NCBI GenBank assembly: GCA_973895155.1
Contig: OZ316899.1
Coordinates: forward strand, 11,657,775 to 11,721,774
Direction of reading: 5' to 3'
DNA length: 64,000 nt
Source of the DNA: Marsupella aquatica
Lineage: Eukaryota; Plantae; Marchantiophyta
Below, in pieces: positions 3,421 to 64,000 of the stretch. The translations under genes and the position numbers were made by a program. Position 1 is the first letter of the stretch; each line of letters begins with the position of its first letter. A model generated the notes under the pieces. It was not told where the DNA came from. It saw nothing but the letters and a program-made list of their open reading frames with translations, and did not search any database.

Positions 3421-3521
3421 GGGGAGCCAACCCTTTGTAGTGCACCAGTCCATCAGTCCACGCGCCAGCTTCGACCCCAGCTCTCTCGTTCGCTCTAAGT
3501 CGCCACTACTATCTCCTCTGA

Positions 3522-7092: not shown

Positions 7093-7111
7093 TGGTGCTA
7101 GATGGAGGGGG
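7093..7111 (+). other. Putative primer-binding site (TGGTGCTAGATGGAGGGGG), 12 nt after the 5' LTR; primer tRNA not identified
   Basis: First TGG-initiated tract downstream of the LTR end and upstream of gag. Confidence 0.5.
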
Positions 7112-7203
7112 CACTCTACATATCATAGAGGGGAGACATGTGCGTATTCACCTAGGTAGGATACATCAGGACGTAGTACTAACCATCGCATTTATATGAG
7201 TAA

Positions 7204-13200: not shown

Positions 13201-13214
13201 CGGTTAATGAGTGA
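7204..13214 (+). pseudogene. gag-pol: Family-A gag-pol polyprotein (Gag, 3 CCHC knuckles, protease, RT, RNase H, integrase)
   Basis: Single frame from MPVTRSQ (7204) with three stops (7315, 7711, 8230) and one frameshift near 12945. Motifs: LVDGGAG, FLDGYSGYNQI, FIDD, HHCC, GIDY/SDRG/ERAN, and the Athila-type VLLYDSR..FPGKL..RWLGPF. Confidence 0.95.
13165..13181 (+). other. Polypurine tract region (AATTAAGCAGGGAGCTA)
   Basis: Purine-rich tract directly abutting the 3' LTR start. Confidence 0.6.
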
Positions 13215-25884: not shown

Positions 25885-26200
25885 TTTTTATTTTATTTTT
25901 CAATAAAACCCGCAAAACCCTACGGGAAAGGGGGCCAAAAGGCAACAATGAGACCCTCAAAAGGGAAGGCCAAAAGCCAAGGGAGTGAAAGACAAAGAGA
26001 AGCAACGCGAATAAACCAAACTACTTCTAGAACCAGCCTGCCCTGAGACCCTCAGAAGATGACGGTCTCACAACATAACCCCACGACTCTAGTTCTGCTA
26101 GCAGGTCACAGCCAGGGAACCCATCCAAGATGCAAGAACCAAGAAGGGTAGAAGCCCTAAGGCCAAGAGAGACTAAGAGAAGGAACTAAGTAACTAAAAA

Positions 26201-29200: not shown

Positions 29201-30125
29201 ATGTACTCCTGTCGCAATCTCCAGCAAGCACGATTAAACCTGAGATGCGGTTCGGAGGTATCGACATCCACTCTTTCCCAAGCAGATTTGAGCCGCTCTA
29301 TATTGGCTGCGTCTTTTAGGAGACCTGCATTTGCTTTGAAGTATGACGACTTTGGCATATTATTACAAGTGTCCGCTGCAGTGAGCCGGCATCTAAGAAT
29401 GCATGGATCATGGTCTGAAAGAGCCAAGCTCCCTTCATGTAGTAGTTCTTCGACACTTCCAGTCCACCATCCGCGCTCACTGAAATAGAATCTGTCGAGC
29501 CGTGATTGCAAATCTTCCCATTAATAATCCTTCTCTAGGTGAAATTTGCACCTATAAACTTGTGGCTAATGCTAATGGCATCCACTAAGTCAAAGCGCAT
29601 TTTCAGGAATCTCCAAAATTCTTCCTCACGCCCATAGATGAGGGGGGAAGAGCCAGTTGAATCTATACTCCTTTCGGTCATATTAAAGTCGCCATAAAGA
29701 ATCCAATTATCATGAGGCAACGAGGTCTTCAATTCATGCCAAAGCAACGCCCGCTCCCTGGCCATATTAGGAGCGTAAATACTTGCGAGACCAAATTTGC
29801 CTTCCTGGTGCTCCACTCTGACCCATACAACGTGGCCCTTATCAATGATCCCAGATTCAATTATCTTGAGTGAAGGATGCAGCAGTAAAGACGTGCCCCC
29901 GTGTCCCTCATCGGGAGCGGAGGAGAGATGTTGGTAGCTGGGCAAAATAGATCGTAAAGCTATGTCTAGTCTAAATTGATCTGCCTTGACTTCTTGTAAT
30001 GCAAGTGCTGTAAGTGGTATCTTCAGTGAGGAGAGCCAGTTCTTGACTACTTGTTTCCGGTTTGGGTCACAGAGACCTCATACATTCCAAGACACAAACG
30101 TGAGTAATGTACTCATCTTGTGCAT
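26201..30125 (-). pseudogene. LINE ORF2 (APE endonuclease, RT, zf-RVT), with several stops and frameshifts
   Basis: SWNV*GL, IYAPN, GDFN, SRLDRFY, SDH, KAPGPDG, WRPLTMLN, QSGFIPG, GVRQGCPLSP, FVDD, and a C-terminal CxxC. Confidence 0.93.
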
Positions 30126-30154
30126 TGGCAAGCCCGCTACAGGCCATCTCTTAT

Positions 30155-32629
30155 TCAGTGCAGAGAAACCGACCTAGAGCTGCTCGGAGAAAGGTTGTTC
30201 TCTGGGAGGGTTCGCCCAGCATCCCGGATCCGTCCGCCTCTTCCTTCCTGCTCCACCAGTTGTCGTTCATCATGCCAAGCCTGACCTTCCATGGAAAGAC
30301 GATCCCTGTATGGAGTTCGGGCAGACTCAGACTCAGTTGCCGCATATTGCAGAGATCTTACTTTCTTATTATCTTTCCTCAGATCATCTTTCCTCAGTGC
30401 CGAAGGAGGAGTTTCCTCAGTTCGCAGCTTCAGTTGGCTTTTGGTGATGTAGTCCTCGTATTCAGACATCTCAATGTCAGAGCCCCCTTGATAGGAGTGA
30501 TTCTCCTCCTCTCCGCTTCCAGCTTGTGCAGCTTCATATTCTTCAATCGCTGAGAGCTCTTTCACTCTCGCCGGACCTGAGCTTTGTGAGTGGCCAGGCT
30601 AAGCACCACGCTCCCTGCTGATGCCTTCAGGTCGATTAGTCACAAGCCTGTCCTCAGTGACCGCCAATGCAGGCCACGTAACCGGGTCCAGTTCCTGTTC
30701 TTGGGTATGGTTCGTGTTAACACTGTGTTCCTTTTGAGTTTGGTCATTTATGGCACTTACATGCACATGAGTCACCCGATTGACGGCTGAAAGCGACGAA
30801 ATCCTGAAAGGGGGGTGAGTTTGATTTTCATGTGCATGGCCCATGCCACTCAGTGTCCTCCGGTCTGATCTATTTGGGGACTCTGCGTGCCAACCTGCTT
30901 CAGCACTCCTCACCGTTTCCTGTGGTTCGTGGGTCTCCACACCAACTCTGAGCTCGCTCGCCTCCCTGATTGAAGATAGATGATCACCCCGCCTTGCTGA
31001 AAGCGGCACACCGAGTGTCCGCTCGCCCAACCTAGTAGCAGCGTCACCACCATCGCCAGAGTAGCTGTCGTGTTGGGGCTTATTAGTACTAGTGAAAGCC
31101 TTCGGATTGCCGCTATCCGGGATATCCGCCGTCATCGTGGCCTCCTGAGAGATATCGCCTGCCCGCGTGTGCTCACCAGTCTTTTGTGCCCCGTTGATTT
31201 CATGGCCTTTAGTAGTGTTCTCCCCCTGCTCAAAGGCTTTGTAGTCCCGAGCTAAGTGCCCCTTCTGGTTGCATTTGAAACAATGATATGGTATATTCTT
31301 GAATACTACTAGCTGCCAAATCGTGATGCCCTCGGTGATATCCACACCAACGCAATGGGGGACTTCCCTCCCTGTGTCCCAAAGTATACACGCCCTATCA
31401 TGGGGGAAGGAACTACGTTCGTCTCCCTGTATGTAATAGAGAACCTTCCCAAACGACTCGGCTATCCGTTTCCTGCATCCCTCTAGTACAAGCGCTCGGA
31501 ATGGTAGCTCAATCCATACGGGAAGCTTTGTGTAAGAGTCACTGCTGGCATCGAATGAGGGATCCCATGGGAAGGTAAAAACAAATTTCCGATCCATGAA
31601 GAAAGGGGCCAGCTCCAGTGCTGCATCCCTATGTTCTGAAAATTGAAACGTGATCACATAGAAATTCTTACCAGCAAATTTGAGTTGTGTAATTGGCCAG
31701 CCCAAGTCTCTAATGAACACTGATTCGGCCCATTCCCGGAAAGCTGGTAAAAGAGGGGGCCGGTCCGTGAAATAGCACATCATTGTGCAGTTGTACAATT
31801 CTGTAATGGAGAGGGTAGCCTCTTCAATGGACCACTGAATCCTGGTGTGAAGCGTGTTAGGCCAATCACCAGTGGAGCTAATGGCTATTTTCCTTAGCAT
31901 TTCCAAACATGTATCCGAAAGCTCTTTAGAGAACTCACCAGCCCCATTAGTGTTAGCATTTCGTGCTTCAGCTCCATTAGGATGCGGAAGGCTGGTGGGT
32001 TGCGTTTGTAGCTCCTCCTGTTGCACTGAATTAACGGCCTCATGCTGGGAAGCAATATAAGCAGCCTCATGCTGCAAGACGCTGGTTGCAGCAGGCCTAG
32101 ACACCGGCCGTCTCAATGAGTCAGTGGTATGCCATTGCGGAGCAGCCCCCGGAATTGAATCCCTGATGAACGCTCCCTCTCTCATAGACGCCTCAGGTCG
32201 CGAGGAAAATCTACTCTATAGTTCATGTTCCACTGCTTCCTCCGCTTCTTGTATATCTAGGTCCATCTGGTCCGCCCAAGACGGTCCAGAGCGTGGAATG
32301 AACCTTCTGCTACTAGGCCCGTGTCCTTTGTCAGTAGTTTCTTGACGCCCATCCGAGTTGTCAAATAGATCAAAAGGAGCAGACTTTGGTCCGTCCCGAG
32401 CATCTTGAAGAGAAAATCTAGAGTGAGGCGTCTCACTAGACCGTCTGGCTCCATCCTCCTCTATAATACGTCGAGCCTCCAAAGCGGAAGCAACCCGTCC
32501 CTCCTCTCTATTATTCATCGGATGATCCCAGTAAGAAGGACCCACAGCAAACGGAAAGGTCGAACCGCGCCCAGGGCCTCGACCATAGCCGGCACGCGAC
32601 AGGGGTCCCCTCCCACTAAAATGATCCAT
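30155..32629 (-). pseudogene. LINE ORF1 (DUF4283-like region and CCHC knuckle), two in-frame stops
   Basis: 32216-32629, 30599-32185 and 30155-30565 share one frame. Motifs PVWIELP and CFKCNQKGHLARD. Confidence 0.85.
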
Positions 32630-32942: not shown

Positions 32943-35900
32943 TGTGATGCCTAGACAGGAATCACTCGGCCAGTTAAGTGGGTAAAGCAGGAATGCACCC
33001 TGGAAACACCTTAGTATAGGGACAAAACAAGGAAAATATAAACAATTAGGGGCGACTATGGAACCCGGGCCGAGGCCGGAGGTAAGGACGTTGGGGGTGA
33101 AAACTCAATTAGGGTTAGGGCGCGCTAAGCGTCGGCGGCTAGGAAGGATCAACGGGAGGAAGGACCGGAAGAGGAGAGGGGTAAGGAGCACTTGCAGGAG
33201 ATGGTGGCTCATTTGCGAGCACGAACTAGGCAGACGACTACGAGAGGCCAACTACTGTCAGCTGCTTAGGCAAGCACTCGGAGAGAGAGTAGATACCAAC
33301 GATCGACCTAAGGAGGGTATGAGCAACGTCAATCAAGCGACACATTTCTGGGGATGCCTGTTCGAACAGGCAACTGAGTACATCAAGACTTACGAGGACG
33401 AGGAATCAGAAAGGGCAGCTCGAGAACGACAGGAGCTCGCTCGATTGTGGGAGCTGCAGAAGACGGCTTTCTTAGGAGGCGAACTCATCAAGGACGAGTT
33501 CTTGTGGACTCCTACTTCCAATCAGCTCGACGATCTTCTATTTTGCGAAGACAGAATCATCGGCATTCGAGAGGCCATCAAGAACTGCAACGACATACAC
33601 TGGGAATTGAAGGGTAGCACGGAAAGGTGGACCCAGGCAACGGTGCTAGGAGAAACCTCCACGGCAGCAGAGATGAAGAGGAAGGGAGCCATCAACGATG
33701 AAGCCACCCCGACAAAAAGAACGAGGTCGGCGGCACCAAAGAAGCCAGCCGACCAGCAGAGCAGGAGGCAGGGAGAAGCCGAAGAGGAGGAGGTCGATCC
33801 CATCAATGCCATTCCAACTAGGGATGACACCTAGAAAGGCTGGGCGGCAACCCTACCGGTGGAGGTGCAACTACATTTTGCACGGGAGGAGGATGCATGC
33901 TTTACGGCCATGCAGACCACGAAGTACCAAGGCTTCATGGCCGGATCCGGCTTAGAGGCCTTTGTAAGATTACCATGGCTGAAGCTGGAGGTACCGGATT
34001 CAGACCTATTAGAATTCGTGGGGTCATGGGAACCCGAGACCAATTGCACGAGGATATATGGGAAGGATTTCTATCTTACTCCCAAGGTGATTGCCGAAGT
34101 GTTTGGCTTGCCGATAGGCAATAAGACCAAAGTTGATACCAGGAAGACCTTGCCTGACAAGGAGTTCCGGTCGTTCCCCGGGCCATCAACAAAGAATGGC
34201 TTCTTCCGGAACACCTGCACCAACCCACACATAGGAGAGATGATCGACTTCTTGCGGGTGACCATGCACTGTAACTTGCCGAGGGCAGAGATCGGCAAGG
34301 CACAGGTCTATCTGGCAGAGAGGCCAGACCCAAGCCGGGACTACAACGGGTACCTCCTCAACCAATTGAAGAAGATCTTAAAGGAGGAGCAGCAGGTAAT
34401 CGGCATGGGGAGCGTGTCGCGACTTGGCTATCACATGCCGCTGTTGTGCCGGTATGCCAGAGGACAGACCTTTGCCCCAGTACTTCCCCTGCAGGTAAGG
34501 GCACCCGAGGAAGCTCCAGCACCGAGGCCGGTAGCAGAGAAGCCTCAACCACCTGTTAGCCCTACGATCGAGCAGGTGTTTAGGCCAAGGAAGGAAGACT
34601 TGCCGATGCAGCAACCTGGCATGCAGAATCTGCTGAAACTACTGGAGAAAGAAAAGAGATCGGCATCGGCAACGACAACGGCAACGGCAACAATGCAGGA
34701 CACTACTCCAGAGGTAGGCCTACACCGGCTTACAAGGGAAAACCCTTTTACTGGAGACAAGGAGAGAATCAGGCCATAATCCAAGCCGGGTGTTCGAATG
34801 TACGTGGGAGTCTCAAGCTCTGAATCTGAGGCAAAATTGCCTGAAGCTCCTACCGACGAAGAGGAGAGGGAGAAGCCGGAAGTCCAAGAAGTAGAGGAGG
34901 CAGTGGAGGACTGCAGCCATGATAACTCCGGCTATGGGTCGGACCATCACGTTCCAGGAGTAAGGACCTGTGGCCGGTTTATCCCCACACTTCCAAGGGT
35001 AGTACGAGGGGACCCCAACCAGCAAAGTAGCCCTGAGTCTCCCCCACCAGATGTTGCTCCCCCGAGCTTTGACGGCATAAAACAGACGGCGCAGGAATTT
35101 CAGGAGCGAATCAGGCAGGCAGAGGAGGCAGCCCTGGCTAGGGAAAAGGATTTGCCAGGAGGAGATTGGCCAGAGGACATCAAGCGGCTAGCCAAAAAAG
35201 GAAGCAAACCTCTAGCCACGATTGAAGAGATCCGCAAGACGGCTTGGGAGCAGAGGCCGCGGTGGATGATGCCGATGACTTCTACTTCCTCCACCTATGG
35301 TAAAGATAGAGCCATGGAGTACGGGGAGATGTGTGGAGAACTGGCGCTCAGCATCCTTGGGGAGGAGTTGGAGCAGGGACCCTTTTTCCAGAGGGAGATG
35401 TTGGAGAAGCGCCAATTAGAAGAAGCGGTGGCCTTGGAAAGAAGCAAGAAGGACGAGGTCATCCGTCGGCTTAGGGAAAGGGAAGCCGAAATCAAGGACC
35501 TGAGGGTGGCCAAGAAAGCCCAAGATGAGCTGCGGATTAAGCGACATGAGCTAAATATCATGCAAGGCCAGTTGGATACCGCACAATCTGATAATCGGAT
35601 GATCGAGAATCTACTAACGCGGACCCAAGGAGAGTTGGCCGATACGATCAAAGAGAGGGAGAAGTGGAAACGAGAGCTGAGGAATGCAGAGGAGGCCCAC
35701 ATAACAGCCAACAACCGGGCCATGGCGGAGACCCAAAGAAAGGAATGGGCGTTGAAGGAGGAGCTCCAGAAAATCCGCGGAGCCCTTGAGCAGAAGGAGG
35801 CCGAGTTAGGGAAATCCTATCAAGGGATTATGGCGTTGTAGCAGGAGCTTGCGTCCCTGACGGCCAGCTTCAAGGCCGACCTACGGGAGAAGGACGAGAT

Positions 35901-44940: not shown

Positions 44941-47537
44941 AGATGATCTGAGTGTAGTTATTACAACTTTAATGGCCGGAGTTAGACAGTTAGAAGATGA
45001 ATGAGGGCTGGTACTCCTGAAGTGAAACACTTGGCCCTGGGTATCACACTGACGCCGATGCGACTGGTTAGTTATACATCGAATTGTTGGGTGTCAGTTT
45101 TCTTATGGAGCATGGTCGTTATGCTCTCTGTATAGCAGGTGTAGGTGTTCGACTGGAGGTGTTAACTGTAAAATTATGAGATACAAATTACAGTACTTGA
45201 ATGCTCAGTAATGAATTAAAGGAATCAATTTTAGTACACAATGTGTCTAGATTAGGGTCAGAAACATACTTGATGGCTATGTCTGTAAACGGGTAACACC
45301 AGAACGGGATGTATGCGCGTCCCTTCGTAGTGACTCAGTCCGTGTGCTAGTCAACAATAGATTTAACTAAATTAGATTGAAAACTAAGTAGGTGCTAAAC
45401 AAGTAGCCGTAAACTCGTAACGTCAGCAAATTCGACAGCAATGTAGGATTAATCTGCAATATGGATCCGATGAGACAGGAGCAGATACTCCTCTTCCACG
45501 AGTTCTGTCCTCCTTGAGAACGTTTCTGGACACAATGATTTGGTAGTCTTCTTTCTACTGTCTTCAGTTGGCCTTTGCGTTGTCAAGATCCAACGACGAT
45601 GGACTCTTCGGGCTCATGAATCTTTTGGCAATGATCCATGTGGAGAAGTGCACAAGCTTTACTTCCAAGTGGTCTCGGACACTACGATCTGTTTGCATTT
45701 ACGTCAGAAGGTGTTTAACCTACTTTAGTTAAGAGTTCTATACTAAGGATAGTTTGCTTAGTGGATAGGCTTTCCCCAAGAAATTCTCTACAGATCCGAC
45801 TGAAATAGCGACGGGAGCATTTTCCACACCAGTGTCTCATTATTTTTTCTAACTACCGACTCTGTTTAGAGTTATCTGGAAAAATATTTGGTGTCAGATC
45901 CAGTTATTTTCGCACATTGACCTAGCCAGTTTTATGTTCTCCACTGTAAGATCTCGAAGATCTTTTGTGTTTGGCTAGTCTGATTCTCTCAAAGTGTATT
46001 GTACCACCTTCCCTTCTGGAGCCCTTCCAATCAGTGCTAACGTTCAAAATAGTTGCATGTTCAATTGCACTGGGCCACGAATCTCTGTTACACTGGAGCT
46101 ACCACTTTCAGAATTCTAGGCGTTCTTAATATTAGGAAAGAAACAGATTTCAGCAGGCCTTGAACGGACTTATTGAGGCTAAAAGATATGACGCACACCA
46201 CCTCGAACCTGCCTTAGGTCGAAGAATCACCTCTCTACGTTCTAGATCTTTCTTGATTCTGTTATTTAGGTTCCTAGAGTAGAGATTGCCTGATACACTA
46301 ATCACCTCATGGCCCTATCAGTTGCTATAGAATGAAGGACGAACTTAATATACCTTTGCTTCGAAGCCAGTGACCGATTGGACTTCTGACATTGACTACA
46401 ATGGTGAACAAGCCCATGTCTCAGCTATCAAGTAAGTCACTGGAAGTAAAATTTAGTCATAGGCAGTACAGAAGTGTAGTCGGTGTTGGTCCAACGAGAA
46501 CTTGATCTGTTCTAACAGACGAGGATGCAACATTCTTCCATACCAACTTAGCTACCCGGCGCTGCTATTGGCATAACAACCGGTCCACCATAGGTTTGCA
46601 ACCTTAATAGTAAAGGAGCTTAGTTCCTGATGGAGGGCTCTCGTAGCAAATCTTCGAACAGGGTCAAATAAACTACCGATACTTTCCGTAGTATTGACAA
46701 ACAGGGCAAAATTATTTCAATGCCCGTTAAACCAGAAATAAAGGTGGCACTCCTGCAGTGCGTGGGTAGAAATGTTCTCTAGCAGCCAGTTACAATACCA
46801 CTTTCATGTCTAGCACATAGACCATCAAATTGAGCAGTCTTGGACAATAACCGCATTTTATACTGAATCTGGTTATGATCGTATGCCATAACCTCAGCCT
46901 ACCAAAGTCCCGTATTGGCAAGGACCATTTAGCGTTTCTATATAAATCATATTTTAGATGGCCTAATGAATTGACTTGAGAGGAAAATCTCAAAAGAGGT
47001 TGTTTTATGTGACAAATTGCTGTAACTTTGCAGCTGAGGTCTCAACATGTCGGTCGTCTACAGTCTTGAATCAAATATATATTTGGCCAGTCTACTATGC
47101 GAATATTGGGAGGCGAATATAGACTTTTCTCTGATTGCTGGTACCGCTGTTGAACCCAAGGATTTAAAATCTGCATCGGGTGAACACAAGGATTGCAACG
47201 GGATGCCCCCTTTGAAGCGATTGCGTCTGAAACATAAGAAATAATGTTGCAGTCTCACAGTTGGTTCGAAATGAACTTATATTTGGCGTTTTAGTTCGCT
47301 ATCGTTGTAACTACATACGGAATGCACAAGTCGACTATTGTTGCTCTTGTCCGCCTTATCGTTGATCGTCTTCCAGTGTTTACAACAGTTACCAAATCGG
47401 TTATGTAGGATGTGGGATTATCAGGAGAATTTCACATTATTGAGCTACTACAGACGGGTCTAACTTTCGTTTTGTCAAACTTCTGGTGGCTAGAATGTGG
47501 TCCTCATGGAGTCTTTTGTGGAAATTGCCAATTGCAG

Positions 47538-48760
47538 GAAGTCAGAGCCAGGTGAAACATGGGGATGAAGACTGCCATGAAGGAAATGACAAAAGATCTC
47601 TTAATCTGTTGAAAAGTCATAGCCCTTTCTCTGACACTGACTGTGTCAGTAGCATCCAGCCACTTGAGTTTCGGCAAAGTCTCCAATCTGCTGGAAATGC
47701 GGAAATGGGGTTGCCCACTTCAACTGTCATTAGTATGCATACAGGCCATGAGAAGCCGACCAAACCTGCAAAGTGGAGAGACATGAATGTAATTCAACTC
47801 CCAGAATTGGATTACAAAAACACCAGTGTCATCGATGACTCTTTCAGATCCACTGTGGAGCAGCATAATGATAGTGCAACGACAGTGCATAACAGCTGTT
47901 TCACAGTCGAAAGGAATAGTTCTGTTCTGAATATGCATGGAAGTCCTGTTACCACGAAGTCTGAGCCCATTGTAAAGGAAACGGGCCTCATCCTGGCAGC
48001 TGGAAGAATATGCAGACACGAAATTTCTGGAAGAGATGGAGAAGAAATGCTTGTCGACACTAAGCAGAAACAAGGGCAGGGCTTTGAGAATTTGCCTCTT
48101 TCCCATAATCTTTTCAGTGGTATCCAATCAAATCATACTTTCAAAAGCAGTCGTTATTCTGAATGTTCTAAAGACGGTAATGGACAGTCGCATCCTCATG
48201 ATGGAGACGATGACTGGGAAGCAGTGGCTGATGCAATCTATATGCAAGGTGCTACATCAAAAACTGACGATGCAACCGAGTTGGTAAGTGGCGAAAATGC
48301 TGATTTGCTTGACAGAAATAGGAAACTTTCGGCAACAAAGGAACAGAATGGTGCGTTGCAGCCAGAGTATAAATACAAGGCAGGTGGACTGGGGGGACGG
48401 ACAAGAGCTATGGGTGGCAGGGCGTGGAGACCTGATGATGCAGCAAGGCCACCTACTCTTCCGAGGCTTTCCAAACAGCACAGCTTCTCTCTCTTGTCAA
48501 CCCCACCAGCCTGGAGTGAATTGCATGACAGTAGTTTTTGGGGTCCACCTCCTGCTCCTTTGTTTTGTCCAATTTGCACCGAAGAACTGGATCTGACGGA
48601 CTCTTCCTTTGTTCCTTGTTCTTGCGGTTTTCGACTTTGCCTTTTCTGTCATCATAGAATTGCGGCAGACGACGGCCGTTGTCCTGGCTGCCGAAATACT
48701 TATAACTCTGATGTAGCCGTGAAATTGTCCCGTGCATCTAATCTTTGGCTCGATATCTGA
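47538..48760 (+). CDS. Host RING gene, coding exon 3; NOT4-type C4C4 RING E3-ligase-like protein (~499 aa spliced)
   Basis: TTGCAG acceptor in matching phase. Motifs DDWEAVADA, RAWRPDDAARPPTLP and CPICTEELDLTDSSFVPCSCGFRLCLFCHHRI...CPGCR. Confidence 0.92.
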
Positions 48761-49510: not shown

Positions 49511-50789
49511 GGGCATTTTTCAACAATGATTGGGGTGCTAGTTATTTGTTGTGTAATCATTGTTCAAAAAAACATGTGGGATACTATAAACAATGTTGTA
49601 ACATTGTGCTTCTCATACTGACCAGTCATCATTGCATATCTGAGTATTACATGTTGAATTATTGCCTTGTATTTTTCCTTGATTGCATCACTGACTATTC
49701 ATTGTATTTTCAGTGTTCTTTCATTGCTACAATAATATGAAATGATTTCATGGTGTTTCATGGTTGTCAGATCACTGTCATTTCATCATTAGTCAAATGT
49801 TACATCGGCCTAGAATCAGCAAGTTTGAATTGTTAAGTAAGCACGGTTTCATTGAAAAATCATTGTCCCCTCAATGCTTATTCATTGTGTTTGCAACAAT
49901 TGAATCACCATGTTTCCATTTTTAATTAAACATATTTACATATGTAAATCATTATCACTTCAATGCCCTCTCATGGGCTTTTCAATGATCAATCATTGTT
50001 GCTTGATTGTTGATATGTTTACAGCAATTGTCATATCAATGTCATTTCATCATGATTACATCATTGTTATTTCATTAGCATTTGATCATTTCCTTGTTAT
50101 TTCACTGCCTCTTTGACATCCATTCATTATCATATCATATCATTGATTCATTGCTATTTCATCACCATTTCATAGTTTCCTGGTTATTTAGTTGCAGCCT
50201 CTTCAACAATTCTTTCATTGTCGTTTCAGCTATGGATCATTGTACTTGCATCATTCAAAAGTGCTGCTCTGGTCACAGGTTGAGATTTAGGGTTTAGGAT
50301 TTGAGTGAGGGTCATTGATAGTTTGAAGTTGACATCATTTTGGGGGTCAAGGACCCATGTCTAAATTCTATAGACTTAAACAAAAGCTGGTTCCAACAAG
50401 CAAGGTGAAATCAAAATAGGGATTGTATGGTTTCCTTGTAGACCACACAACCTGCATTTCAATCAATAATGGTACATAACACGGTTAAATAATTACCATA
50501 TATGCACTTATGGGACAGAACTTAAGAAACCTCCCTTTTCTGGCTTACAGATTAATAAATGTAGTTTATAATAGAAAATAGTTCAAAGCAAAGCTCCTCG
50601 GGCAAAACTTTTACTGGTCCTCTCTCAAAGTCTTCCTATTTTTGAGCTGGGCTTCTTCCTTGTAATTGAGGAAGTTAAGAACTAATCCAACAATGATTAC
50701 ACATGCAGTCTTTGTAAATACTGCACTTTGCATGGCTCCTGCACTCGCTAGCTGACTAATAACCACTAAAGTCTAGACTACACCTAGTG

Positions 50790-51978
50790 CTTTACATGGC
50801 ACGTTCTCAAGCTACTACTCGAAGAGATTCGTGAATGGTGTTCGGAACAGGCACACACACTATACTTGATCACTGGACATCAGTATAACCTCCTATGGAT
50901 GATCGACTCCATGTTTGAGTTTGTACTTAATCTCCCTACAAAAATACACAGCCTGTTTGTGGCAGACATCACTCGATGTTATGAAATGATACCGCTTACC
51001 GGGGATGCTAACCTCCCGAACGCCCTCCAATACATTGTGCGCAAAGCATTCCTCCACCATCGGTCAAAGTCCAGAACACAAAATATCTGGGTACACTTCA
51101 ATACATCTTCTGGTCTCGCGGATAAAGCTCGCTGGCATCAGCACTGCCCTGGTACGGCCTGCTGGATTGAGATGACACAAGATCGATTCCTCGCTCTACA
51201 AAACTGGCTCATTCAACACTGCATGGTTTGCCTTGGCGACAGGGTATGGAGACAAAAGTTGGGCATCCCAATGGGATTTTTGTATTCACCACTATGGTGT
51301 AACCTATACTTCATGGCCTATGAAATTCAATTCATGCTACGCCTTGCCAAACTTCAGCGCTATGACCTGATGCAACACTTTCAAAATACATATTGATATA
51401 TAGATGACTTCTGTTCACTCAATAACACTGAGATCCACAAATTTCTCCTGACAAAGGCACACCGGACCAGAGATAACCCAATCTGGATATATCCATTGGG
51501 CATTGTGGAAATCAAAGTGGGGCATGACACCACTCTACCTGGGCTCGCCCATTGGGGAACTAAGGGGCATTTCTTGAATGTACAAATGGAGATCATGGAC
51601 ACTGTACTTGGAACGTTCACTACAACCAAATATGACAAACGACGTAGCCTACCATTTACATTCCGACAATATATTCAGTTCAAGTCTAACCGTCCAGTAC
51701 AAGAGGCCTACAACATCACCATTTCCTAGATGATGTCGATCCTCTATATGGCCAGTTCCCATATATTAGCCATCATGGAACTGGACATCCTAGCTACGAC
51801 ATTGGGAACAAATGGGTTTGCAATACCTAGAATCTACCGGTTAATACTTCGCTACTGCCACAATGAAACCTTGCCTGGGATTAGATTCGATCTGCAAGCC
51901 CTCATCAAACTCCTGGAGACCAGAGCATTTTACAATCATCCAAGCAGGACCAGAATGCATGGCACATCTAGCAACTAG
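50790..51978 (+). pseudogene. 5'-truncated Penelope-like element RT (Naiad/Chlamys-type signature)
   Basis: One frame with two stops: LWMIDS, ADITRCYEMIP, RQKLGIPMG..SP..CNLY..YE, *YIDD, IYP, FLNV, YDKRR..PF, SNRP...Y...S*. Confidence 0.8.
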
Positions 51979-52054
51979 ACCCACATGTCTGTATGACCAC
52001 TCCACACTGGACTGATGGAAATAAAGCGCATTGCCCCCATAACGAGACTGTGCA

Positions 52055-52304: not shown

Positions 52305-52386
52305 GAGTATGGTATGCACTCCCTTCTGGGGTGAGTGCATACCATACCCGGATGGGAGTGCCTCTACCATGGGTATATGGTGGAGG

Positions 52387-52432
<46 letters not shown>

Positions 52433-52849
52433 ACAAAAGAAAATCGAATTACCCACTTTAAATCAGTATTATAGAAATACCTCAAAACCAATGTACGGAC
52501 ATGTTTATACATATAAAATATAAGTATTTTTTACTTACACTTACATTTATGCACATAAATAAATATACTAATTTTCTGACACATGCACCACCATTCGATC
52601 TTAACGCTAAGAGATGTTAGTACATCTACCACTCAAATAAAATACCCTAGATCTGACGGTCACCATAGGGATTCGGACCCCACAAAGAAAACCTAAAATA
52701 TCTCAGGACCTACGCAACCTTCTTTAAAAGCGCATTGTTCACTCTCTACAGTTATTCTCTTGGCACAGCACTCTGGTATCTTGCACTGACGCACTTTCTG
52801 ACTGCACATCATTTCCAATGTTCTGTTCACACACTGCACTATGTGGGCC
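52305..52849. repeat. Direct repeat copy 1: two hairpins, (CT)n, then a ~420-bp AT-rich block
   Basis: Matches 54824-55393; near-identical downstream of the (CT)n tract. Confidence 0.92.
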
Positions 52850-53917
52850 AGGACATTCTCCTGCCATGTACTCTGTGCCCTATGCTCTGCCCCAATAGAT
52901 GCTTGTGATATAGTTTTTCTAAGTACATCATACTCAAGGTGACCAAGTCAATCAACGAGACCTCTTACACAACTCCAGTACACGAAAAATGGCCCGGGCG
53001 CAACAGGTATGACCTTGTTTTTTTCTATGCTGTATGATTGCTTTTATATTTCTTGTGCTAGCCTTGAACTGATTACGCGTCTCCCCGTTACCGCCTGGGC
53101 TTTGGTAGCAGAAACGTGTAGCTTGAATCTGTCCTAAGTTTGACTGGATTCTCCCCATGGATGGGGGCTGAAAGACAACCATGGGGCCTGCAATGTAGCC
53201 CGTGTCACCTACATTTTCAGTTCAGGATTATGGTCTATATCAATCTGTATGACAGACAGATATGATGAACTGCTACCTTCTGGATTGATCTGATCAAGAC
53301 AAGTCTTTATTGTAAAGGAAAGATATTTTTTCTTCAATGTTTGTCTCAATACTAACCTATGCTAATCTCTTTTTGGTGCTGTCATCCACAATGCAGAGTT
53401 ACCTCTATGCTAATACTTGTGACGTACCTTTTTCTCCTGATTTTTTTAACTTTGATTAAATATTTCTCAATGACGCATGAATACACACATCTCATACTGC
53501 TTTGTTATGTTACAACACATATCATGATGTCACTACTTTATCTTTTCATATTACTTACTTGGAATATAACTCCTTTTCGTATGACCCATTTTTTACTGCG
53601 TATCAAACTTCTATTTGTCCTCCCATGACATACCATGTGCATTCGGTAACTTGTGAATTTCTGACATGAATGATCTGGTGGATATCATATCCAATAAAGA
53701 TACTCCCTCTACCAATCTGTGTGACTAAACCATATGCTCTGTGTGGATATGGTCTCGTCTTGACGGTGGCCTTGACTGGGTGTGTATAAGCTACTCTTTA
53801 TGATCTCTCTCTTACTTTCCTCCACTCCTTCAATTGGTTTTGAAGGACCATTGTCAAGATCGATACTAATGCCACACACCCATGGATGTCTGATTACAGA
53901 AACGCTGGTCACGGGAA

Positions 53918-54820
53918 ATGCTATCTTTAGGATACAATAATGACCTCCCACGGCCATGTAACATGGCTATCCAAGCCACCCTGGCCTCCATTCGCCAGCC
54001 AGAAATTCACACTGCCATCCAGACACATGATCGGGATGTGATGAATCGTGGAGACGATGATGCACCAGGTCAGTTACTCCTACACCTCCTGGGGATTAAT
54101 GAATGGTTTACCATATATCAATCTGCCGGATGTATCAGCACGGAGAATGCTCTGACCAAACTTGATAGTCTTATTAGTTCGCTGGATACTTTCGAACACA
54201 TCGACAAAGACGAATTGGAGCAATCGCGCGTTACCAGCAGCAAGCTAGCACGGATGTTAGCCTACGCACCAACGGTTTCTACTACCAATGAATGTCCCCC
54301 TTCAGCACTTATTACCGACATTGCTTCGAGACTTTGGGAGAATCCGTTGTTAAACACTTCATGGTTGTCCACTGAGGAACGTATTGCCTTCGATGAGGCC
54401 ATTGATGGAGCGCAATCATCACAGAAGGACCTCGATGATTCCAAACAAGATGGAGAACCTTTCATTCCCAATAATCCGCCACGCTTTCTAGAATGGGAAG
54501 CTTCGAAAGTTGACTGCTGCATGTGGCGTATTCCTAACATCAACAATCTTGCTCCTATTTCTCTCGGGATGTGGAAATTGTGGGCGTCCCTCTCTACCAA
54601 AGATATTAAGGCATGCAAAGCAAATGCCGTCTGAGGCTTCTCATGGATCGAAACCTCACCACCAATCTCGACTCGCTGGCCCATGACGATCTTTGGTGCT
54701 CCTAAATACAAATGCTCTATGGCGGCTGGGGCTAAGATCCGTGGAAACTTTGTTACCGATACTTCTAGGTCTCCCCAGGAACACAAAACCAGACTGATGA
54801 GATATGGCTGGAGACGAGGC
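53918..54820 (+). pseudogene. Uncharacterised ORF (~300 aa, one in-frame TGA at 54632) between the direct repeats
   Basis: 53918-54634 and 54683 onward share a frame. No recognisable domain. Confidence 0.45.
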
Positions 54821-54823
54821 TGT

Positions 54824-54908
54824 GAGTATGGTATGCACTCCCTATCTGGGGTGAGTGCATACCACACTCACAACAGATGGGGACCGCTACCATGGGTATA
54901 TGGTGGTG

Positions 54909-54975
<67 letters not shown>

Positions 54976-55393
54976 GACAAAAGAAAATCGAATTACCCAC
55001 TTTAAATCAGTATTATAGAAATACCTCAAAACCAATGTACGGACATGTTTATACATATAAAATATAAGTATTTTTTACTTACACTTACATTTATGCACAT
55101 AAATAAATATACTAATTTTCTGACACATGCACCACCACTCGATCTTAACGCTAAGAGATGTTAGTACATCTACCACTCAAATAAAATACCCTAGATCTGA
55201 CGGTCACCATAGGGTTTCGGACCCCACAAAGAAAACCTAAAATATCTCAGGACCTATGCAACCTTCTTTAAAAGCGCACTGTTCACTCTCTACAATTATT
55301 CTCTTGGCACAGCACTCTGGTATCTTGCACTGACGCACTTTCTGACTGCACATCATTTCCAATGTTCTGTTCACACACTGCACTACGTAGGCC
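54824..55393. repeat. Direct repeat copy 2 (hairpins, longer (CT)n, 420-bp block)
   Basis: Copy of 52305-52849. Confidence 0.92.
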
Positions 55394-56034
55394 CTTGGGG
55401 GGGGGTCACTGTATGTAGGGCTCTACATCGTGTGCTATGTTTTAGGGTCTGGACCCCCTAACTTTTAAGTGAATTTTTTTTCCCCACTCCCTTACTTTCT
55501 GAAAAGCGGCCATTTTTTGAATTGTTTACCCCTATAAAACTTTATGGAAAGTTTTATGATGATTTAAAAAATGCCTATTAAGGAAAGTAAAGTACCTCAA
55601 TAGTGTAGAGCCAATTGTGCAAATTGATGCACATTTCCAATACATTCAATGAATTTGCATCATGAAGTTGAATATCTTGTAATGCATTCATTGTCATCCA
55701 ACAACTTGTAGTTTTCGCTCTTGAATAGTGAAGCATGGTGGGTGCCAGATACTATGAATAGGTAACCAAACATCTTAGGTTGCCTATTCAAGGCATCGGT
55801 ACTCTACCTTGTTTCACTATAAACTCCAGCATGATGATGTCCACATCTCTACCTTCCTTCACAGACTCATGCATGATGATGTCCACATGATGGAGGGGAA
55901 TTGAACCCCTGATTGAGCATAAATCTCAATTTGCCAATCCGCCATCCCTTACTCTACTCCCTCCCACTAACCCTACACATGCATCACATACACACACAAC
56001 AAACTACTTTTAATAAACAATAGTCAATTATATA

Positions 56035-59000
56035 TCACAATTTACTCACACTTTGAATGTATGCAGTCAAAGCTTGCAAGTCACTTGCATCTAGTACATA
56101 CACTCTGTCAACTATCCCAGACTTCATTGTCAAGTTCACATTTGAAATTACCATCTCAATATCAATCCATTGTCCATCTGTTGCATCATAAGTGAACAAA
56201 GTTTTGTTGTTACCAGTAGATTTGTACCAATTACACTGCAAGCGGTACACACTTCCACTCTGTCCAACTGCAGGTATAGGCCTGTCCAACAGATCTATTG
56301 CTTTCCGACGTCTGACCCAATGGGAGCCATTCTTCTGTATCATAAACTCAATCCTACCCAACCAATATTCCTTCTTTGCAGATGTTGCGTCAACAACAGG
56401 CCCTTTATCTATTCCCTTCCTCTTCTTTGACTTGGATGATCTGGTAGAAGGACCAACCTCTACAGCAGACTCAAACAAAACTGCTATATCAGTACCAATG
56501 TCAACCAAACAAGTCACAGAGTCACCATTTTCCTTCTCCTTACCAGTAGTGTAATAGGTCTTCGAGGCTATCCTAGTTAGCCTATCCTTTGACATGAAAG
56601 GATTGCAACACAATTGACCCACAAGAGTGGACTTGTAGATAGTCCTTCCCTCATAAGTTATAGTAGACACTACTGACCGGGGTGTCTGCACATCAGTTAA
56701 GTCTGCTTGAACTCCAGCCAAGACATGCCTTACTTCATGTCCTAGTGTCTCCATCTCACAAAATGGGTTAGTGTCCACCTCAATCGAACAATCATCAACT
56801 GTTAGTGGCTCAATACAATCCTGACTATCCAGAGTGTCCCATGAATCAATCTGATTGAGATCTTCTTCAGGATCTTCAAACTCTAGAAACTCTCCAATTG
56901 GGGGCTCAGGTCTAGGGCCTACAGTAGATCGATGCTCAACTCTGTCTTCAGCATCATCACATAACACAGCCTCTTTCATGATACTTGTATCCGGCCAAGT
57001 CTCTGCCTCCACCTCCCAAGGATGAACCCACCATCATCTTTTTGCTGCTGGCAAAGAACTCCTTGGTGACATGTTCAGCTTGCACAACAAATCCTTTGCT
57101 TCCTGCAAACCTTCCTTTAGAGCATCAACAACCAGCTCATTAGTCTGAACTGCAGAGTAATCAAATAAATTTGGAGCTTATTCTCCTTCATCCAGAGGAT
57201 GTAAAGTTGCCCAAACATGATCCTGTTTATCATGTGATCGACGTATCTTCAATCCCTCTGGTCCATACTCTAATCCAGCTAGTCGATTCAGTCCCACTGC
57301 ACTATCCAGTAGAGATCCAAAGTCATAATTTCTCTCATGGCCACTCATGCCACCTACCTTGCTGAAAAATATTTCACAACAATCTGATCCCAACAAGTGA
57401 AATGGAACTTGCAGATATGGGAACTTGTCCCAAAAGGCACAGATTAACAATACTACAAAATGACAAGACATGTTGATATCATGGAAAGTTTGCACAAAAA
57501 TCATGTTTTTCTCTATGATAGATCCAGCATTCCCTGTCACAAAATGATCACCATACCTCAACCATAGCCTCCATAATCGGAAGAACCAAGATACCTTTGA
57601 TGCCAAGACAACACGGGTTCTTAGGTCATGCTTAACAGAGAAGAAAATATCCATGTAGTCTGCACAAACCTCCAAGTATATCATGGTCCCAAAACTTCTA
57701 TCATGACAAACATCTCGTCGCTCATACATATGCTGCAGGCAGGCCTGCACTCTCCTGGAAGCTATTCGTTGTGGGCCAGCCCAGTTTTGTCTATCTGTCC
57801 TATTCACATCATCCCAATGCAAACCATGCTCATGAATTGCATAATGGTTATAAACAGATGTGACATATGACAAAGATGCATGCTGATCACCAAGAACTAA
57901 CATAGCAGACACTCGGTCCAATGGGTTAATTGCCTTCTTGCCATTGTGAGGTGGGTCTTGGTCTCCAAAACCATATAGATCTCCATTTGGAAGTATGGAC
58001 ACTGAGTATTGCCACCCAACCCATCCTACACTGTACCTAGGAAAGGAACCATTCACAGCAGTATAATCTTCCATCATCAATTTCCTACGACGAGCATCAC
58101 CATCACTAGCATGGCCCAACAAAGGACCAACACTGTCTCTGCAATGTGTGTTCCACATGGACTTCAGCTGCACCCAATGCTCTCTTACCCAGGGAGCTCT
58201 AAACTTGTTACATGTTGGTAGAACACACAATGCCAATTTAGGCATCTTTGCATGCAGAGGATTGACAATGATTACTCTAGCATACATGCCTTTGGCATAT
58301 TGCTCAAAAGTACTTACAATCTTGTCATACCCTTCAGTACCTGCTCCAACTAGTACTTCCAAGCCAAAAGAACATGTGTGCTCCTCTAAGGGGCCACAGA
58401 AACCAATGAGGGTGTCATATTTAGCTTCCCATCTGTCACACACAATACAAAACACACATCAGCTCATGACGTGCAAACTCATCCAACACATTCAAAAGAA
58501 CAAGCTAATTTACTACAGAGACAAAAACACAAACCTGGGTCTCTCTTTTATCCTTGTTTCATCCTCAGCAAACATTACTGGTACATCTCCTAAAATTCCA
58601 AGTGACTGCTTTGATGCACATAGTACTCTGCACACCTCCTGGAATATCTCTTTTCGAATGCCAGCTCTAAAGGGTGGTAGTTTTGCTCTATCACGTTTCA
58701 AGGTCTTCAGACCTGGACCACCTAGGTTTGCCTGGAAACAATGAGCCACTTGTCTACCTCCAAACTGGAACATGGCTTGGGAAAAGGCCTTGGTTCTCTT
58801 ACTGTATCGATAACCCTTAGCAACTCTCTGCAAGTTCTTAGCTACATCTGCAGGAAATCCCACAACCCTTCCTTGCCACCAAAAGCACCACGCCTATGTC
58901 CATTCACAATATTTCTCAGAAACAGTCTTAAATCTTTCCTATCATGGGCTACTCCTAATAAATCTTCTAGCTTCTTTTGCCTAACACTCAAGGCACAAAT

Positions 59001-60629
59001 TTTCTGAGCCTGTTGTGCCAACAGCCAACGCTGTTTCCTAAAGCGAGTGTTGAGGTTACCAACATGTTCCCTCAGTTCGGTTTTGGTCAAGTATGCCAAC
59101 CTCATCCCACCCTGTGTAGTCCTGTCTCCTCTCTGCACTAATGCTTCCGCTTCCCTGTGCACCCTGCCACGAAAATCATCTTCACGTTTTATTGAAATCA
59201 CATAGAGTGCAAGTGAGGTTTTGAAAACCACCTCCATTAATGGACACCCTGTGACATTGCTTGTGCCTAAAACAACCCTGTATACCAACAACTGACTGGC
59301 TAGTTACATTGAAAACCTCAGCACAGGTGGTACGGTCACAGTCCCAGACATTCCCTCCCTCTTGATCATCAAGTATGCCCTTCACAGCCATAGAATCCCC
59401 TATCCACTTGACCTCTGACTCCCACAGGCCCCAACAAAGCAAACTTAAACTTGGCTCAACGGAGGAATACAACCCACCTCTGCCTGAACTGCTCCCTGCA
59501 GCAGAGCTGTCCTCTCAAAAGAAATTCAGAATAGAATTTTGAGATGGAAACAGATCACGAGCATCAGGCTTCCTTGGTCTCCCCTTCTTCCCTGCCCTCA
59601 GTGCAGCCTGGGTACTGGTGACAACATTCTCAAGTGCATCCATATGATCCCGACTGACAAGGTGTTGCCTTAAATTGTGTTCCAAATTGGATTTCTTAGG
59701 GCACATGTCAGTATGTAGCTTGCCACAAACTGTACATCTAACCTTAAATAGGAATGACCTCTGTGCAAATGTTGGATCAGTGGAGATGGTGTCATAGATA
59801 ACACTTCTACCACGCCACCTACCTCTGCATTCAACTTTCCAACTATTTCCACACCAGCCCCTATTTGCATACTATGATCAAGCAGTGGTTGCTGTATAGT
59901 GTCAGCAGCCGTCACCAAAGCTCCAGCTAAACCCCTTCGCTTACACCAGTTCTCCTTGTGTTTAGGGTTGGTCAGGTGCTTTGTCTTGAAGTTGCTAAAG
60001 CAATTTGCGATGGACTTGAGCACCTGTGAAGTGGCTGCATTCCCATAAGTCTCCCTACACTCTAAGCATTCTAGATGACCTCAACACTCCCCTCCCTCAT
60101 CCCATGTTCGCACTTTCCACTTGTGCTCACCAAAGCCCTTCTGGTTCACCCAGGATTGTAGCTTCAACCACTCATCATTCCAGGCCTTTGATGCAGCCTC
60201 AGACATGAGGTGAGACTCAAAGGAGCCTGTGACAGGCTGTACAGTAGCCTGTACTGGCACCCCTTGTGTTTGTCCTTGAGACAATGGAGTCGTGCCTACC
60301 ACATTGGACACAGTGGCAGCAGATGAATGAGAGGAACCAATAGTGACCCTCTCAACAGGCAAGGCAACTGAGGGTAACTCTGCAATCACGTAAACTGTCC
60401 CTTGAAGTTCAGTCACCCCAATAGTCTTCTCTGAAAAGCGTCGGACTTGACCAGGCAACCTCTCATCCCAAAAATCAAAGTCAAACTCTACTGCACCAAC
60501 ACATTTCAGACAAAAATCTGCCAGAGTCTGCCCTTCTTTGAAAGACATGACACAGATTGGCGTATCAGGCTTTCCTCCCTCCTCACCCTTTTCTACCAAT
60601 CTGACAGAGCTCATGCCTAGGTGTGCCAT
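56035..60629 (-). pseudogene. Large P-element-superfamily-like DDE transposase (about 1400-1500 aa, frameshifted; intron 58433-58534)
   Basis: Ordered motifs FAEDET, HASDGDARRR, QDPPHNGKKAINP, DRQNW.GPQR, LGSDCCEIFFS.VGG. N-terminal Cys/His fingers. A GT-AG intron joins ..RPR|WEAKYD in frame. Confidence 0.7.
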
Positions 60630-60779: not shown

Positions 60780-60955
60780 ACTTACTTAAGTCCATTTCAG
60801 TTCATCAAACTTCCACTTCATTCAACCAAATACTTAAGTCCATTTCATTCATTGAAATACTTAAGTCCATAGCATTCAACCAAATACTTAAGTCGATCCA
60901 TAGCATTCAACCAAATACTTAAGCTGATCCATAGCATTCAACCAAATACTTAAGT
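60780..60955. repeat. Short tandem repeat (CATTCAACCAAATACTTAAGT, ~26-31 bp unit, ~6 copies)
   Basis: Directly visible, just upstream of the transposase ATG. Confidence 0.85.
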
Positions 60956-61035
60956 ATAATTTAGGTTGTCTTATGGGTCCACTACAAAAAAGGTTCAAGT
61001 TATAAGATGGTGGAATTAGTAGCAGTCATGCTGGT

Positions 61036-61761
61036 CTAGTCATGGGTACTTGGGATATCATAACCCTCTGGGATGACATGGCGAGTATAGTAAACCATGT
61101 GCCACTGTCCAATGTCCCAGGTGTCTCGGCCCCTCACCCTTCTCCTCAAGTGCCTGTCTGTTGTTGGTCCTTCATCACGACACCATGCATGATGGCATCT
61201 ATGACATTGGACAAAATCCCAAATGCCCTCCCGATACTCCTTACAGACCTCACAGTAATGTCGTGGGCATATAAGAGCATCGGGATGTGCATAAGGATTA
61301 TCTAGATGGCGGGTGAAAGGCATTTCCCCCAATCGCAGAAGTGTCCGAAGACAACTCACATGGTAAAATGAGTAGCAGTCATCATGAGAACACTGGATCA
61401 CAAGGGGCTCGTCTGTGGTGGGTCTCAAGGTTCTGCCAAGGAGTCCACAACCAAAACATCTTCCTCTGTTTTGCTGATAGAGGTCACAAAGCCAAGCTGC
61501 AGCCCAATCATGACCTCTGGAAATGACAATCCGCTGACATGTAGGTCCATGGCCATCTTCCTCATCGGGGTTGTGGCCATCAACTACATAATGAAAATGG
61601 CGACCACAAGGACCATCACAGAACAAAACAGTTCCTCCCTCATCACATTCAAAACAGCAAGGGGGATCCATACGAAGGTGCTCCCTATGCCCAAATCTTG
61701 GATCCAGCAACTGACGAGCAATGTGTGCCATGCTGAACAAGATCTGCAAAATTACCTTCAA
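61036..61761 (-). CDS. Tandem PHD-finger protein or exon (EDM2/NSD-like composite PHD)
   Basis: CFECDEGG.VLFCDGPCGRHFH...C...WLC...CFGCG.LG...IQC...C.SFYH.SC...ICPRHYCEVC...FVQCHRC. Confidence 0.78.
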   Translation of the reverse strand: MKVILQILFSMAHIARQLLDPRFGHREHLRMDPPCCFECDEGGTVLFCDGPCGRHFHYVVDGHNPDEEDGHGPTCQRIVISRGHDWAAAWLCDLYQQNRGRCFGCGLLGRTLRPTTDEPLVIQCSHDDCYSFYHVSCLRTLLRLGEMPFTRHLDNPYAHPDALICPRHYCEVCKEYREGIWDFVQCHRCHHAWCRDEGPTTDRHLRRRVRGRDTWDIGQWHMVYYTRHVIPEGYDIPSTHD

Positions 61762-61900
61762 AAATTAGGGGCAGGCATGTGATGTACCAGAAGGAGCGAT
61801 AGTCCACCAGCAATCATAGCCAGTAGGCACCACCAGGGGCATGACTTCCCTGTGGGCTCCTTTGATCCATCCTGCAATGTGAGCAATGCAAAATCAGAAG

Positions 61901-62653: not shown

Positions 62654-63121
62654 CTATATACACCTGCGTTTTGGTATGATCAAGTTTACACTTTGCCAAA
62701 GGGCATTTGCCTCATCCTGTTTAATCATTTCTAGTTTCCTCTTGGTATTGTGAGCCTCAGATTCTACCTCAGTCAACATTAAGTTGAAAGGGCCTTCTTG
62801 CAGACGTACCCCTACCTTTAAGGATTCACACATCCATTCAAATGAGACAACTTTCATTGCCTGATTTTGAACAAAGTGATTCACATCAGACCAGGACCAT
62901 GTGGACAGGACTGCTTTCCATGAATTGGCAACAATGTGAGTGGTCTTGGTGGATAGAATATCACATTGTCCACCATGACGTTCTATCAGCTTTCTGTGAA
63001 AGACTTGAAAATGAGCTTTGGAAAATCCATTTTGAACTAAGATGGCATTCACGCCTCGGAAAATGGGGTTTGATACTGAACTAGGTGTGGCTTTTTGCGA
63101 AATGGCTTGTCTACGACTCAT
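62654..63121 (-). CDS. BRCT-domain protein or exon (resembles the N-terminal BRCT of plant DNA polymerase lambda)
   Basis: IFRGVNAILVQNG...KLIERHGG...KTTHIVA...VVSFEWMCESLKVG: canonical BRCT GG, THIV and WxxxS motifs. Confidence 0.8.
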   Translation of the reverse strand: MSRRQAISQKATPSSVSNPIFRGVNAILVQNGFSKAHFQVFHRKLIERHGGQCDILSTKTTHIVANSWKAVLSTWSWSDVNHFVQNQAMKVVSFEWMCESLKVGVRLQEGPFNLMLTEVESEAHNTKRKLEMIKQDEANALWQSVNLIIPKRRCI

Positions 63122-64000
63122 GGTACACTAAACCATAAACTATAAGAAACCGTCTGCTGCTCTGCAACAAAATGAAGCTTACTTGAATCCTCCAAACAGA
63201 TGCCTAGAATTTCTGCTCTGTGATAATTCAATACAAAACCCCTGCACAAGTCCCACACACAACAAAAAGCTCAATAAAACATCAATAGTCTCAACATACA
63301 CCAAAAGCTTAGTACAGTGAAAGTGAATGAGGACCGCAAACTCTCTCACTGTGACACTCTTTACAGTCTCACCAGAAATGCTTTGAAAAACAAAAATGTC
63401 AGGTTAAATAAACTGCGCAGGTAAAAAAACCAGGTTCTCTATCACATTGACAAACAAGCTTTCTTTCATAGTCCGAGGGTTTGTCTGTCTACTATCAGTT
63501 TTCTGCTAACATGTTCCAACTCTGATAGTAGACCCCCCCTGAGAGACTGTCAGTTTTTTGCTAACTATGTGCATTCTGCTAAGCCAAGCTGCAAGTAAAC
63601 ATAGTTAGCAGAATTTCATTCACTTTGGAACCCACAAAAAGAGTTGCTATATGAATAGCAATGTTCTTACCTTCACAGCACAGTCAGTGCAGGATTGGAT
63701 TGGATCTGATTTGGATGGCGAGCACCGATCACAACGAAGATCAAGCACCGATCACCAACCAAGCAGCACTCACCAAGAAAGCACCGATGTCTCTTGCTGA
63801 GTTCACCCTAAATGGACAATCTTGCCAATGCGAGTGGGGATCAGATGCGCAACTTTTTAGAAGCTTCTATAACTGAACAAGCTGGATTTCAGGGTGGCTC
63901 TTTTCAAGGCAATGCAAGCACATAGGCTTGTGACTGTGACAACATAGACTCTGTTTGTATGGAAACTTCCAATTACAAACTCACAGGAGTGATAGATTCT

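Follow-up and report, generated by a model that had tools for sequence, protein, structure and literature searches.

A decayed transposon with a predicted P-type transposase fold in the liverwort Marsupella aquatica and its relatives in non-seed plants and cnidarians

The window analyzed here is a stretch of 64,000 nucleotides from the liverwort Marsupella aquatica (GenBank assembly GCA_973895155.1, contig OZ316899.1, positions 11,657,775 to 11,721,774 of the forward strand), and all coordinates given below refer to it. Its positions 56035..60629 hold a transposase gene that very probably belongs to a decayed, multicopy DNA transposon with a P-fold transposase, representing a divergent, THAP-less P branch of liverworts, ferns and cnidarians. 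The window family is a member of the P superfamily outside the animal THAP branch. An earlier note, made from the letters alone, had recognized a P-element-like transposase at this locus; beyond it, the present analysis finds that the gene is broken, that it has a predicted ubiquitin-like N-terminus and C-terminal barrel and a likely PHD-finger cargo, and that its relatives include cnidarian proteins.

The gene spans 60629-56035 on the minus strand, with an ATG at 60629, a stop codon at 56037-56035 and ca. 1,500 codons encoded in pieces, and intact relatives of ca. 1,530 residues tile this entire span collinearly in tblastn comparisons. As a whole it is a pseudogene (56035..60629, minus strand) with four premature stops (60083, 59517, 57180 and 57036), three frameshifts (near 59781, 59195 and 58850) and one intron: the window copy is decayed, and the full-length enzyme cannot be made from it. 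Its CpG observed/expected ratio is 0.21, against 0.66 in the intact relative at locus L001, which would fit the expectation after methylation-driven decay. Among the matches listed, contigs of related sequencing runs depart from the window at every one of its frameshifts and at two of its four stops, hence other copies are less damaged.

The motifs named in the earlier note (EDE, SDG, DxxHxxKxxxN, DRQN and DxxExxFS..GG) are all found in that order on the minus strand, as AEDETR at 58569-58552, HASDGD from 58113, DQDPPHNGKKAIN at 57963-57925, DRQNW from 57795 and GSDCCEIFFSKVGG at 57390-57349. They lie in a split RNase H core with a helical insertion domain (57349..58569, minus strand), whose catalytic residues are D at 58563-58561, D at 58104-58102 and E at 57375-57373; conservation in an alignment of 36 rows is 29 of 29 covering rows for the first D, 35 of 36 for the second and 34 of 34 for the E. 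The relatives compared come in part from metagenome loci, with 93 confirmed among 145 candidates and 80 kept. Within the core, a GT-AG intron of 102 nt (58433..58534, minus strand) is inferred to be spliced: the segment contains in-frame stops, and its excision leaves a spacing of 48 nt between EDET and GFCG, as in 43 of the 45 loci where both motifs could be located (80 examined). A 119-nt GT-AG insert of locus L015 matches it in position and in phase, and just past the site lie the starts of several database proteins, so the comparative evidence sides with the intron that had been proposed.

Concerning the fold, an AlphaFold2 model was obtained for P0009, an intact relative (mean predicted local distance difference test score, pLDDT, 75.6; core ca. 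90). Foldseek places the P transposase structure 6p5a first (E 5.2e-11, TM(target) 0.72) and RAG1 next (E 7.9e-4), while VIA gives the P transposase a Z of 24.9 with a root-mean-square deviation (rmsd) of 3.4 over 409 of 442 residues, the runners-up being ISCth4 (8.8), RAG (8.2), Transib (8.1) and Hermes (7.9). MuDR, hAT and Transib-RAG were rejected as the closest solved fold, with Z of 8.8, 7.9 and 8.1-8.2, respectively, against 24.9 for P. In the model the helix-turn-helix (HTH), the split RNase H and the insertion domain (GBD-fold, P-type) all superpose on the P transposase. The claim of a P/THAP9-type RNase-H core with its insertion domain, for which a Foldseek comparison with the P structure had been suggested, is borne out by both programs, and no other DDE superfamily gives the best match.

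The sequence links to P are weak but consistent. A family profile of 75 rows matches 6p5a at E 6.2e-4, the best of 26 rows, and in this alignment the D of EDE falls on D230 of the P transposase, the second D and the E being matched to D303 and E531 by motif and conservation. TNP-like_RNaseH_N (PF21787) is detected in 4 of 36 family members (best E 2.6e-4) and the Tnp_P_element HTH (PF12017) in 2 of 37 distant relatives, one of them above the cut-off. The window's own core open reading frame (ORF) has 193 features in common with TNP-like Atlas clusters, to which it maps at 0.93. Eight residues contact GTP in the Drosophila P transposase, according to the available text of PMC7776569; three of them are kept (S409, D444 and, by the spacing of D-x-x-E, D528), while the positions of K385, K400, V401, F443 and N447 are occupied in the window by G, N, W, M and F, in a mapping taken from a low-scoring alignment segment of 2.9 bits.

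At the 3' side of the gene the element ends in a terminal inverted repeat (TIR), CTTGGGGGGGGGTCACT, at 55394..55410 (plus strand), of the type C-Y-Y-G(6-9)-x-x-ACT, as in the ends of L001, L002, L003, L036 and L038; the G-run and the ACT are common to the nine ends compared. The element lies in the second of two direct repeats, 54824-55393, whose first copy (52305..52849, plus strand) is an insertion-site paralogue without the element and 92% identical to it. The similarity stops exactly where CTTGGGGGGGGGTCACT begins, the paralogue continuing into unrelated DNA, and together with contig breakpoints this comparison sets the boundary exactly at 55394. In four of four sequencing runs contigs pass from unrelated flanks into the element at the G-run (with an agreement of 0.53-0.68 wherever more than one was pooled), and one contig of run X1 bears the empty site. 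The left boundary anticipated at about 55394-55410 is thereby confirmed with 55394 as its first base, and the locus, far from being single-copy and lacking termini, is multicopy, with unrelated flanks and a real terminus. Summed contig depth, which serves as a hint only, rises at 55396, stays high to ca. 62350 and is intermediate to 64000.

The 8 bp of target DNA abutting the terminus, CGTAGGCC (55386..55393, plus strand), are predicted to recur as the target-site duplication (TSD) at the far end, the length being taken from L001. The partner TIR is absent from the 64-kb window even with mismatches allowed, hence the window copy either exceeds 8.6 kb or is missing its 5' end. Past 64000, the partner would be an end of the AGTGACCCCCCCCCAAG type in inverted orientation, with CGTAGGCC after it. 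The 3' subterminal region (55411..56034) contains a GTG-centred motif ca. 35-40 bp from the end, weakly common to relatives, in which a single G is invariant across nine ends; it is a possible binding site. At 55436-55475 in this region the depth in runs X3-X5 is several-fold higher still, which may point to many short derivatives or to a shared repeat. At the other side, tandem repeats of 27-31 bp (60783..60958) lie just upstream of the ATG.

The expectation of a TIR pair with a 7-8-bp TSD is realized in a complete relative. L001 measures 6,096 bp, has perfect TIRs of 26 bp of the same type as the window terminus and an 8-bp TSD, GTTTTCAT, and contains an intact, intronless frame of 1,520 codons. 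L002, a relative of 8.8 kb, has a pair of 15-bp TIRs, and L038, which likewise has a TIR pair and ends of the window type, shows an 8-bp duplication with an offset of two C. Eleven other rows of the TSD scan were discarded as chance inverted repeats of 8-9 bp or as the interior of the L002 TIR. A second ORF of 174 codons lies inside the TIRs of L002 (7003-7524, plus strand), without a Pfam match, as a different cargo in another family.

The regions outside the core set this family apart. A ubiquitin-like (beta-grasp) domain is predicted at the N-terminus (60390..60629, minus strand) from the model of the L001 N-terminus, to whose relatives the window region aligns; L001 residues 1-84 model as ubiquitin-like with Foldseek E 8.8e-3 and a VIA Z of 7.8 (rmsd 2.5 over 68 residues). 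It is followed on the minus strand by two C2H2-type zinc fingers of the form C-x2-C...H-x5-H (60074-59958 and 59739-59644) with a frameshift between them, a Cys/His-rich domain, LLCWG...FRHxxC...CxxC (59200..59442, pLDDT ca. 55-60), and a coiled coil and HTH region (58570..59195) that is interrupted by the frameshift near 58850, corresponds to model helices 108-268 and aligns in the profile with P residues 104-247. The C2H2-like fingers proposed to stand in place of THAP are present, and THAP was found neither by Pfam, on the window pieces and on sets of 11, 36 and 37 proteins, nor by pattern: of 112 long proteins, 50 show the C2H2 pattern and none a THAP-like one. THAP structures are also absent from the rows of the N-terminal fold searches, but matches to the ubiquitin-like domain take up these lists, which hardly probe the remainder of the N-terminus. 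At the C-terminus (56050..56520, minus strand) the model of P0009 residues 913-1063 weakly predicts a beta-barrel of BAH/Tudor/chromo-like type, with a best Z of 7.0 to the BAH domain of AIPP3 (rmsd 3.1, 83 residues aligned), which is within the 'common arrangement' range of VIA. The barrel has no Pfam match and an Atlas value of 0.76; a hidden Markov model (HMM) of this domain matches the window protein at 5.6e-26, and the domain occurs in 58 of 74 tree rows of at least 780 residues, coral rows included. The distant relatives P0180, P0017 and P0322 are extended at the C-terminus by different domains, among them PTM/DIR17 Tudor, SAP and C1.

Upstream of the gene, an open frame of 242 codons (61039..61764, minus strand) encodes NSD-type PHD fingers (PHD_NSD, PF22908, E 1.2e-8) and is probably cargo of the window element; the contig depth over it equals that over the transposase, a weak hint. 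A BRCT-like ORF (62657..63127, minus strand; Pfam BRCT E 0.0035, below the cut-off) lies within the element or its flank, at intermediate depth. Neither ORF has a match in 81 loci, 463 proteins or P0322, hence the wider family does not generally carry them, and the PHD frame would be at most a feature of the window's own family.

By name, the relatives belong to liverworts, a fern and a coral. Riccia or Calypogeia account for 7 of the 19 long matches and Riccia for 28 of the 56 shorter ones, two of which UniRef auto-named 'Transposase'; among the 120 profile matches listed there are 9 from Riccia, 2 from Calypogeia, 3 from Adiantum nelumboides and 1 from Desmophyllum. No seed plant occurs among the named relatives, most matched rows carrying no name, and a look-up of 30 clusters named Desmophyllum as sole host. 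Relatives sit on liverwort contigs of 11-66 Mb, and moss relatives are suspected from a plant leucine-rich repeat sequence beside L005. None of 39 candidates on viral contigs was confirmed, and the one confirmed among 187 in prokaryotic genomes, on a 2.1-kb contig of a metagenome-assembled genome, is probably a eukaryotic contaminant. At E<=0.001 the wider family comprises 6,116 representatives, most of which Pfam's P models do not cover.

A tree was computed with IQ-TREE from 47 of the 120 rows, after dropping cluster members and rows covering less than 80% of the core, and with FastTree from all 120; it is unrooted and has few host labels. The plant-named rows and the window form a clade of 22 rows with 100/100 support (IQ-TREE), in which the window groups with Riccia (100/99), and the coral rows fall outside the plant clade. 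It is likely that a P-type transposon, usually missing from plant lists, survives in non-seed plants.

Compared with known systems, the P transposase of Drosophila melanogaster (PDB 6P5A/6PE2) shares with this family the coiled coil, the HTH, the split RNase H with helical insertion, the acidic linker, the D/D/E triad with its D-x-x-E end motif, the short TIRs and the 8-bp TSD. It is, however, an 87-kDa protein with a THAP domain, whereas the window family has ca. 1,500 residues, no THAP found, a ubiquitin-like and C2H2 N-terminus, a C-terminal barrel and termini with a G-run. THAP9, the zebrafish P-like elements, Galileo and 1360 share the superfamily core and TSDs of 7-8 bp, but are animal and THAP-bearing as far as they are described in the available text of PMC7776569 and PMC3698922, and it is these descriptions that set them apart. 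The 'hypothetical proteins' of Desmophyllum pertusum together with L036 and L038 show ca. 30-35% identity and have the C-terminal domain. L036 and L038, grouped with the cnidarian relatives, have the same end type as the window, while the cnidarian relatives lie outside the plant clade and are annotated as hypothetical only. Outside animals, P cores are known from THAP-less fungal (Dfam class 'P-Fungi') and algal (Chlamydomonas) P-like elements.

In plants, a 2023 review lists, in its available text, seven TIR superfamilies, P not included (PMC10741241), and the accessible portions of PMC3698922, PMC5718144 and PMC4455052 make no mention of P in land plants. The literature search yielded no account of P elements from land plants; bryophyte or cnidarian members may have entries in Repbase or Dfam.

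It should be noted that several observations weigh against a P assignment of the window element. The modelled protein is P0009, 50% identical to the window in the core, and not the window protein itself; identity to the P transposase is 13-14%; the margin of 6p5a over a designed helical repeat is no more than 35-fold with the 75-row profile, and a 28-row profile has no match among PDB sequences. No P-family Pfam match was obtained for eight window pieces and the read-through core, and the mapping of the GTP site depends on the 2.9-bit segment. The tree contains no canonical P or THAP9 sequence. Concerning mobility, L001 alone among the 31 loci scanned shows a clean TSD, L002 has none despite its TIR pair, and the far end of the window copy lies outside the window.

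Some of these observations would also suit a sister lineage, working in a P-like way but distinct enough in its ends, its missing THAP, its N-terminus and its barrel to deserve a named group or superfamily of its own. For it speak the low identity, the missing THAP motif in all 112 long proteins, a spacing between the first and second D of 119 residues against 73 in P, the change of five of the eight GTP residues and the 6,116 representatives that mostly escape Pfam's P models. The profiles, however, converge on P by sequence, and by the Repbase rule, as given in the available text of PMC4455052, families with converging profiles are merged. The 8-bp TSD is also the same as that of P, and we regard a separate lineage as rather unlikely. 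Far less probable is membership of another DDE superfamily that lacks a solved structure, such as Kolobok or Dada, with P as merely the nearest solved fold: identity is low and a fold search can rank solved structures only, but the superposition takes in almost all of the chain, and the P-type insertion domain with it (Z 24.9), the separate Pfam, Atlas and HMM links all point to P families, and the TSD is 8 bp long, whereas the target of Kolobok is TTAA. Despite the cnidarian members of the family, it is very improbable, and already largely refuted, that the locus is a host gene after domestication, arose by passive duplication or represents animal or other contamination of a plant assembly, given the broken gene, the terminus and empty site, the embedding among plant-type L1 and LTR (long terminal repeat) elements, the relatives on long liverwort contigs and the grouping with Riccia.

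For the P-superfamily element that we favour, movement was likely by cut and paste with target duplications of 8 bp. By analogy with the mechanism given in the available text of PMC7776569, the enzyme would, with high probability, pair the two G-rich ends, excise the element and join it to the target with an 8-bp stagger. Recognition of the ends may well have passed from THAP to the C2H2 fingers and the HTH, a step that we consider somewhat favoured. Whether the enzyme would still use GTP is evenly balanced, because three of the eight contact residues are kept. More speculatively, and rather doubtfully, the C-terminal barrel and the PHD cargo could read chromatin, steering insertion or countering silencing.

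Taken jointly, these features allow a tentative picture, which we hold to be possible but not probable, of a recently mobile, undescribed P clade present in non-seed plants since the early embryophytes (or acquired early from animals) and lost in seed plants. In it THAP would have been swapped for the ubiquitin-like and C2H2 region, a BAH-like histone-reading domain would have been gained, and the window family would have taken up the PHD-finger cargo, giving a chromatin-reading transposon with perhaps a relaxed need for GTP.

If liverworts and ferns harbour a P-type clade, the list of plant TIR superfamilies would lengthen, and transposon debris would account for dozens of gene models that are called 'hypothetical' in Riccia, Calypogeia and Adiantum. 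Intact, intronless elements such as L001 offer direct tests of whether end cleavage with a 17-nt stagger, a criterion of the P superfamily, and the GTP dependence are general or animal-specific, as well as of whether the fused barrel steers insertion. Such elements are also candidate tagging tools for bryophytes.

The surroundings of the element are rich in other repeats. At 50788-51990 (plus strand) lies a decayed reverse-transcriptase-like frame with PMG..YSP..YIDD motifs and no Pfam match, which we take to be Penelope-like. It is followed by the above mentioned direct repeats of 550-570 bp (52305-52849 and 54824-55393), which contain a hairpin and a run of (CT)n; Rfam gave nothing at the gathering score and three chance rows at E<1, leaving these repeats unmatched. 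Between them lies a 246-codon ORF (53894-54634, plus strand) without a Pfam match. A frame of 438 codons at 47444-48757 (plus strand), with a terminal zf-RING_4 (NOT4-type) finger (E 8e-19), is a probable host gene.

Farther away, a broken plant-type L1 LINE (long interspersed element) occupies 26200-32215 (minus strand), with DUF4283/zf-CCHC, endonuclease, reverse transcriptase and zf-RVT domains. A Ty3/gypsy element at 3059-16832 has a pol of 1,571 codons and direct repeats of ca. 3.7 kb set 10.1 kb apart, each containing a coiled-coil ORF of 490-670 codons. Inverted copies of a related LTR-element family, 73-80% similar, lie 31 kb apart at 943-2102 and 32943-34091. Finally, an inverted repeat of ca. 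330 bp and ca. 90% similarity (19566-19907 and 21690-22008) encloses a spacer of 1.8 kb with a 246-codon frame, possibly a foldback or Mutator-like (MULE-like) element.

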